In this document: positions 31,082-31,910 of the stretch, one piece after another | How the letters are laid out: every line of letters begins with the position of its first letter | Position numbering within the stretch: the stretch's first letter is position 1 | NCBI GenBank assembly: GCA_047459655.1 | Contig: JAJREF010000005.1 | Coordinates: forward strand, 288,001 to 352,000 | Direction: 5' to 3' | Source of the DNA: Rhabdochlamydiaceae bacterium | GTDB lineage: Bacteria; Chlamydiota; Chlamydiia; Chlamydiales; Rhabdochlamydiaceae | DNA length: 64,000 bases | Notes under the pieces: model-generated | The model's database searches: none | Told to the model about the DNA's origin: nothing | What the model saw: only the letters and a program-made list of their open reading frames with translations | Translations under genes and position numbers: made by a program

Positions 31082-31910
31082 AGACCTCTGCACAACTCTG
31101 GCAAATCGCTAAAATCGCGCTTTTTCTGCAGATTTTATTTTTCATAATCGAGTTAGGTGGGGCCTTACGGCCCCGACCTACGTGCGACCGGTATGTCGCT
31201 AAACTAGAGGGTGAAAGTCCCTTACGGGCTCTTGTAAGGAGAACCGTTAGAGAAGGCAAGGGTGTCCACCGCGAGGTGGAATCTGAAGAAAGCCGTATAC
31301 AAAATGCTGACCTGACGAACAGGAAGCGCATATGAGGCAGTGACTCTTGGATGAGAATGCGTAGAAATTCAAAGTCCAATACTTACATAGAAGGGTCCAT
31401 GTAGATGCGACAGGCTAGCAGGAAAGTGTTGTGAATTACCCGGTGAGATCTGCATTCATGCCCGACTATTACCCGACACAAGAGGGGAACGACGGAGCTA
31501 GCGGAGTCTCTGAGAGATGCCGTGAAAGGTGCAGAAGTCAGCAGACGGCATAGTAATTCGTCGAAAGACGATGAAGGCCTGAACATGAAAACGAAGGGAA
31601 GAATCTAACCCTCTATGGGAACAAGGGTCACAGAAACGAAAAGGCCAAAACAAAGGACTCAGGACGGAATCCTGTACCCCCTCTGTATGGTGTGATGGTT
31701 GACTGGACGGGAAAGAAATTCGAACCTACCTGGCTGGGAAGGATACTGTTGATGCGATGCATACAACAACAGGACGATCGGCTAGGTCATAGTGATCATG
31801 AACCGCCGTATACGGTCCCGTACGTACGGTGGTGTGCGAGGACGGGAGCCTAATGGCTCCCTCCTACGCGATTCGATTTTTTGTTTTTCCACCGTTGTGC
31901 AGAGGCTTCT
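31082..31910. mobile_element. Family B palindromic MITE-like element interrupted by a group II intron
   Basis: Terminal inverted repeats CCTCTGCACAAC / GTTGTGCAGAGG; about 140 bp after intron removal. Confidence 0.75.
31182..31872 (+). ncRNA. Group IIC intron, ORF-less, 691 nt
   Basis: 5' GTGCG; IIC-type domain I (GGGTGAAAGTCCC, GCAAGGGTGTCC, GGAATCTGAAG, GGATGAG..CAAAGTCC); DV GAACCGCCGTATACGG..CCGTACGTACGGTGGTG with CGC triad; DVI ending CCTACGCGAT; no RT ORF. Confidence 0.93.

Follow-up and report, generated by a model that had tools for sequence, protein, structure and literature searches.

The window, the whole 64,000-nt stretch of DNA analyzed here, comes from an assembly (G000) of 1.61 Mb in five contigs that is 81.6% complete. 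It contains an ORF-less group IIC intron of 691 nt on the forward strand (31182..31872), located between divergent genes, where it precedes a type III secretion cluster of the chlamydial type. The neighboring genes encode CdsD, a YscO-like protein, a DUF5398 protein and SctN. These neighbors, and the mostly chlamydial carriers of closely related introns, fit the chlamydial origin proposed in an initial annotation of this DNA. The region upstream of sctN lacks the intron in both of the two same-genus genomes compared. Promoter signals in the intergenic region are not above chance (6 sites, 4.2±2.2 expected).

Several other features were noted around the intron. The sctN gene (29485-30800, minus strand) is divided into two ORFs that meet near 30102-30105, while it is a single ORF in both same-genus genomes. 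A contig of sequencing run X1 agrees with the assembly at this point, and the split may be a sequencing error or a real frameshift. The intergenic region (30800-32634) carries, besides the intron, repeat pieces at 30927-30985, about 30990-31070, 31082-31146 and 32089-32254, and the same-genus genomes have other inserts at the same place. The ORF that follows (32634-34190, plus strand, 518 aa) has no Pfam or NCBIfam match and includes, near 32860-32910, a short tandem repeat; at 32697, the X1 sequence is one base shorter.

The intron starts with GTGCG at 31182 and ends with GAT at 31872, as the initial annotation had placed it, and the search with group II intron models suggested there bears out its identity. 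Domain I matches Rfam RF02001 (31265-31435; 136.9 bits, cut-off 32) and domains II-III match RF01998 (31499-31579; 49.6 bits, cut-off 35), while the match of DV-DVI to RF00029 (31801-31872; 39.4 bits, E 4.2e-06) is slightly below the cut-off of 40. Based on RF02001 and a consensus fold of 34 relatives, domain I is of the class-C type and about 260 nt long (approximate limits 31187..31445). Domains II and III lie at 31449..31579 (approximate limits), as defined by RF01998 and the same consensus fold. Domain V (31802..31833) contains the CGC triad at 31804-31806, and domain VI (31835..31872) has a bulged A at 31866 as the branch point (7 nt before the intron terminus) and the 3′ terminal AT. All these parts are on the plus strand, and each ribozyme landmark recognized by the first reading (GTGCG, IIC domain I, CGC-triad DV, DVI and 3′ AT) has thus been located. 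The intron has the traits of group IIC: six domains, a 5′ GUGYG and a 3′ AY, the CGC triad, a 4-nt EBS1 and a compact domain I. The CGC triad is present in DV of 29 of the 30 complete relatives; the other one could not be parsed. GAAC is the usual DV terminal loop of IIC introns; the equivalent loop (31815-31818) is GUYC or GAUC in 28 of these 30 relatives.

Domain IV (31580..31801, plus strand) is about 220 nt long, close to the 200 nt first estimated, and contains no reverse transcriptase (RT). Its proximal stem is kept, as is the old start codon at 31615, which is followed by a stop after 26 codons. The closing stem (31728-31734/31781-31787) carries a 46-nt loop in the position of the former ORF. 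Within this loop, a cap hairpin of 30 nt (31744..31773, plus strand) is found in ORF-less introns only. No RT remnant was detected in domain IV by tblastn with the co-resident RT as query (best E ~9), in agreement with the first reading.

The ribozyme is undecayed. The whole-intron RNA is predicted to fold with a z-score of -2.77, with none of 20 shuffles as stable, and 44 of the 104 pairs in the consensus fold of the 34 relatives show compensatory change. The window intron departs from the consensus at 5 of 279 conserved columns, compared to a median of 7 among the 34 aligned introns. The DII loop departs from the consensus at 31511, where an X1 contig has one extra base.

EBS1 (GTAG, 31361..31364, plus strand) occupies the loop of the stem 31355-31358/31367-31370 (GAAT/ATTC) and pairs 4/4 with IBS1 (CTAC, 31178..31181, plus strand). 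The initial annotation had pointed out this complementarity, and the EBS1 assignment is now fixed, since EBS1 covaries with the exon end over 43 distinct sites: 131 of 172 pairs are Watson-Crick, while permutations give 49±6 (maximum 72). EBS1 takes 32 different sequences across these sites. A candidate EBS3 (A at 31405, plus strand), in a joint-best column, is complementary to exon position +1 in 11 of 21 introns with weak covariation; it fits the window site and mismatches the site of the second copy described below.

The surroundings of the intron are repetitive. Four palindromic repeat families with 84, 20, 12 and 32 loci cover 1.3% of the DNA of G000. These families (L035, L040, L041, L042) are uncharacterized, mostly about 155–170 bp long, and have related ends. 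Family A has the traits of a MITE: inverted ends, 84 loci and a 4-nt target duplication in 27 of 38 copies. Families B and C also have inverted ends and multiple copies, with ambiguous target duplications. No parent transposon or transposase was recognized between matching repeat ends in G000. Of 121 genomes belonging to the bacterial family, 27 contain short family-C matches, mostly to the ends. The repeat termini presumably resemble those of the rickettsial palindromic element RPE1; RPE1 was rejected as an identity for the repeats, the best TIGR01045 score being 12.5 bits with a cut-off of 30. PMC9769881 concerns a Cardinium MITE and has no bearing here.

The window intron lies in a family-B element whose center has been replaced. 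The left arm of this repeat (about 160 bp, 20 loci) is located at 31082..31146 and its right end forms the 3′ exon (31873..31905); a family-A MITE copy lies nearby at 32089..32254. The replaced center (31147..31179, minus strand) is a relic that an older group II intron left behind, comprising its domain VI and 3′ terminus; the complement of this relic forms the target hairpin. A pattern of 26 letters (one N) taken from this relic occurs with 0 mismatches within the RF00029 match of one intron locus (L094), and with 1–2 mismatches within those of three others (L133, L135, L137). It was found in 4 of 401 genomes, while the reversed control was found in none among the matches listed. The 3′ end of the relic joins the family-B arm 12 nt after the central loop of that family. 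Judged by sequence, the hairpin upstream of the intron represents, within a palindromic repeat, the complement of domain VI from an older intron. A terminator was considered for this hairpin and rejected: no terminator-like site is present at the junction, and the center matches domain VI of other introns. The locus would have been built by insertion of the repeat, arrival of the older intron on the minus strand, a deletion that spared domain VI, and insertion of the present intron on the plus strand.

The five contigs of G000 contain three IIC domain-I matches and one RT. The search for further copies suggested in the initial annotation was productive: an identical ORF-less twin is located at another site, C3:40903-41593, and no more than these two copies of the ORF-less intron are present in the assembly. 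The identity of the two copies ends exactly at the intron's 3′ end, and 7 nt into the 5′ exon; beyond these points the flanks differ. EBS1 pairs 4/4 with the exon ends of both copies. The C3 copy splits a family-C palindrome, and intron-free twins of this palindrome are present at C1:420906, C2:181843 and C2:197611. For the site occupied by the window copy, an intron-free allele is absent from the assembly. Contigs from run X1 span the left junction and also show the C3-type 3′ junction, but this support is not independent, since X1 may be the source of the assembly. No RNA dataset is among the sequencing runs listed as containing the intron.

These copies bear on the possibility that the intron is an immobile deletion remnant, the second copy of which arose via DNA recombination, gene conversion or assembly collapse. 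Deletions of various sizes that affect the ORF are indeed common in the lineage (13 other distinct complete introns of 660–1584 nt), and Logan contigs merge the two copies into one. However, the flanks differ, the ends are precise, IBS1 matches 4/4 at both sites, empty twins of the C3 site exist, and the ribozyme has no excess decay; the C3-type 3′ junction in the X1 contig points the same way, with the reservation given above. We consider a remnant improbable, and a mobile intron is preferred.

The third domain-I match belongs to an RT-bearing IIC relative of 1932 nt (L001, C1:699634-701565), which encodes a 471-aa RT/maturase. This protein matches TIGR04416 with 421 bits (cut-off 300), contains only the RVT_1 and GIIM domains, with no endonuclease, and has the GsI-IIC RT (PDB 6ar1) as its closest solved structure. 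The C1 intron is 81–84% identical to the window intron in DI-III, 69% in proximal DIV and 97% in DV-DVI, and is among its more distant relatives by DI-III. The RT-encoding parent anticipated by the initial annotation was thus found in part: an intact-RT relative is present in the genome, but it is not the direct parent, given the 81% DI-III identity and the closer ORF-less relatives elsewhere. The high identity in DV-DVI (window 31797-31872 compared to L001), where an unrelated relative reaches 96%, possibly results from gene conversion or template switching.

As the adjoining stretch (L043, C1:701566-701853) shows, the C1 intron closely follows tRNA-Leu(CAA) in the same orientation, preceded by an 83-bp direct duplication that begins with the 3′ end of this tRNA gene. 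Its 3′ flank is half of a family-A element, the left half of which does not form its 5′ flank; this mismatch between the flanks suggests a rearrangement. An insertion sequence with an N-terminal helix-turn-helix is present in ten copies that are >99% identical (C1:701914-703065 and nine other loci); the copy beside the C1 intron abuts a family-C end and appears to be frameshifted. For each of the three introns of G000, one junction or both fall in a repeat family. All three, a sample of only three, are also on the G-rich strand, which would be the lagging-strand template.

Of 400 genomes of the phylum that were searched, 63, G000 included, contain intron matches; pattern scans added 18 and 32 loci. 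A few carriers of related introns are labeled as other phyla. The 19 full-length RTs of these introns form one clade relative to 17 plasmid RTs in a quick tree (SH-aLRT 100), in which no attC-type RT was knowingly included. Viral contigs searched with the C1 RT gave no match, and no integron annotation was found at the two best plasmid RT matches fetched. One locus (L063) contains two clade introns directly head to tail, the second junction lacking an EBS1 match. Another (L094:349-2397) is occupied by an intron of a different type, which has an AGC triad in DV and encodes an RT of 441 aa that is 42% identical to the C1 RT; this intron sits after a hairpin resembling the family-B core, and a clade intron follows 3 nt later.

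The cap hairpin of domain IV is restricted to the window intron, its twin, L006 (with its duplicate L056) and L072. L072 is 94% identical to the window intron and L006, from another family, 86%; these are the top two in overall identity. No match to the ORF-less domain IV over its full length was found in 60 further relatives. A tree of DI-III groups L005 with L072 (92/91) and L006 with L060 (95/82), leaves 20 of 37 branches open, and does not recover a common origin for the three ORF-less introns with the cap. Descent of these introns from one long-lived ORF-less lineage is likely, and no more than likely since the DI-III tree does not group L006 with the others.

The identity of the helper is a related question. 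The same mechanism of mobility could have depended on a closer RT-bearing intron, rather than the one on C1, that is missing from the assembly or was recently lost. The incompleteness of the assembly (81.6%) leaves room for such a helper, and three RT-bearing introns elsewhere (L076, L090, L063) exceed the C1 intron in their DI-III similarity to the window intron. On the other hand, the five contigs contain only one RT and three IIC domain-I matches, the DV-DVI identity to the C1 intron is the highest among the complete relatives compared, and the common domain IV cap suggests that loss of the ORF preceded the divergence of the ORF-less relatives. A missing helper seems unlikely on balance, and the C1 RT is the preferred candidate.

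The hairpin upstream of the window intron (GGGGCC/GGCCCC stem) ends at 31174, 7 nt before the junction. The initial annotation regarded this arrangement as expected for a IIC intron. The position of the stem is as described, but the arrangement differs from the expected one in that IBS1 is included in an extended predicted stem and the distance to the loop is about 6 nt shorter than in control IIC introns. The junction follows the hairpin loop (31165-31168) by 13 nt. For the lineage as a whole, 62 distinct 5′ junctions were gathered, after dropping two degenerate starts, and 58 were measured in predicted folds of 45 nt. The other four comprise two with short exons and two that follow the end of another intron; in the latter two, measured by eye, the DVI loop is about 18 and 20 nt away, against the rule. 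The controls were 16 of 17 plasmid IIC introns, chosen by hand, that have a usable 5′ end.

The junction lies 10–14 nt past the last hairpin loop at 45 of the 58 sites, compared to 12 of 53 upstream control stretches, and the sequence upstream of 44 of the 58 sites folds below the 5th percentile of shuffles. The median distance from loop to junction is 12 nt in the clade and 18 nt in the plasmid controls, one of which (L096) measured 11 nt; the Mann-Whitney p for this difference (about 2e-6) is overstated, since related introns are not independent. IBS1 is at least three-quarters paired at 41 of 58 clade sites and none of the 16 controls, while a T-rich tail is present at 3 of 58 clade sites and 13 of 16 controls. 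According to these predicted folds, insertion in the lineage takes place at a median of 12 nt past a hairpin loop and in most cases within the predicted stem. The features associated with terminator targeting, i.e. an intrinsic terminator, a U-tract and a single-stranded IBS1, are absent from the window junction and from most of the sites.

The association with repeats raises the question of whether the lineage homes to MITE-like repeats specifically, as opposed to any suitably shaped hairpin. The three introns of G000 all touch repeat families that cover 1.3% of its DNA, and 14 of the 22 sites with both flanks pass the threshold for a palindrome that spans the junction. However, the other 8 have no long palindrome, the window target is itself an intron relic, and EBS1 takes 32 different sequences over 43 sites. 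Furthermore, 12 of the 65 candidate sites in which a hairpin is followed by CTAC are already in repeats, so that no preference for repeats in themselves is demonstrated, and many of the other candidates are probably in genes, where insertions would be purged. Specific homing to repeats is, in our view, unlikely, and recognition of hairpin shape is favored.

Class C introns that target terminators, such as B.h.I1 (PMC1702495), O.i.I1 (PMC4748821) and the E. rectale intron (PMC10190682), share with the window intron the CGC triad, the 4-nt EBS1, a hairpin before the junction and, as regards its candidate helper, an RT without endonuclease; terminator targeting by IIC introns is also described in PMC8919778, PMC7306698 and PMC7161350. 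The structure of the E. rectale intron combines a stem of 12 bp, a 4-nt spacer and a 4-nt single-stranded IBS1 (PMC10190682), about 20 nt from the loop as summed here, whereas the clade median is 12 nt. Its IBS1 is single-stranded, whereas IBS1 in the clade is usually in the predicted stem and U-tracts are rare. The accessible text of PMC8919778 does not mention chlamydiae or palindromes. IIC introns have also been reported after "other inverted repeats" (PMC1702495) and at attC sites (PMC3001079). The IIC-attC introns (S.ma.I2; PMC3001079, PMC4424553) are similar in that they insert in an imperfect inverted repeat of a mobile element and not after a terminator. However, no integron features were seen at clade sites, the flanks in G000 being palindromic repeats and an intron relic, and EBS1 in the clade is highly variable.

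ORF-less introns in bacteria nearly always share the genome with a related intron-encoded protein (IEP) (PMC4424553), and those of Thermosynechococcus elongatus and Trichodesmium erythraeum are moved or spliced in trans (PMC8643678, PMC12584367). The present intron would resemble these as a non-autonomous intron served by the RT of a related intron. The T. elongatus introns are of class IIB1 with an EBS2 pairing, whereas the window intron is a IIC intron for which trans action is inferred. ORF-less group IIC introns have also been described as HYERs (bioRxiv 10.1101/2024.08.31.610620; PMC11127173; PMC11224995). The 691-nt ribozyme is a candidate HYER by analogy, sharing the ORF-less class IIC ribozyme, the short target recognition and the lack of a domain IV ORF. 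It differs in showing signs of recent retro-mobility and in that the genome encodes a candidate helper RT.

In this context, a HYER-like role was also considered, in which the domesticated ribozyme would be kept for defense and cut DNA independently of protein. Some ORF-less IIC introns can hydrolyze ssDNA (bioRxiv 10.1101/2024.08.31.610620; PMC11127173), and the ribozyme of the window intron is conserved. Yet the locus is not conserved, EBS1 fits the intron's own insertion sites, the branch point and proximal DIV are kept, and a helper RT is present, so that a defense role is very improbable. The preferred explanation is an intact ORF-less, non-autonomous retroelement, most likely served by the C1 RT, that inserts at a fixed distance from a hairpin loop; we regard this as probable.

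In the proposed mechanism, the intron RNA would be transcribed and then spliced, and the RT would bind what is left of domain IV. In the E. rectale intron structure, the maturase has its high-affinity site at D4a (PMC10190682), and the retained proximal domain IV stem is inferred, by analogy, to be its equivalent. Cross-recognition by the C1 RT is likewise a supposition, given the 81–84% DI-III and 69% proximal DIV identities, and the incomplete assembly may lack a closer helper. The RNP would then bind the apex of a hairpin exposed in the lagging-strand template DNA and melt its lower stem, allowing EBS1 to pair with the four bases before the junction. Reverse splicing would take place about 12 nt past the loop, and the cDNA would be primed at the replication fork. 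If the junction is set by its distance from the loop, long palindromic repeats and the domain VI of another intron become usable, and a U-tract is unnecessary.

The ORF-less IIC intron itself is of a known kind and ordinary. The part that may be new is the target geometry of the clade: neither in-stem insertion at 12 nt nor chlamydial IIC introns in repeats were found in the literature searched, which did not extend to key site surveys, and published surveys may already describe the geometry or the intron. The broader proposal, a chlamydia-centered IIC clade with an in-stem rule of about 12 nt and a persistent SINE-like ORF-less sub-lineage that moves across chlamydial families on borrowed RTs, we hold to be about evenly balanced.

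The reading of DNA shape by IIC introns is known in detail from one structure, with its 12-bp stem and single-stranded IBS1. A clade with the junction about 6 nt nearer to the loop and a paired IBS1 would directly test what sets this spacing, for example by swapping RT or RNA parts between clades. G000 provides a complete natural test set: besides a minimal intron and a candidate helper RT, it contains one and the same target in filled and in empty form. If true, the in-stem rule would open long palindromic repeats and the domain VI of other introns as landing sites.
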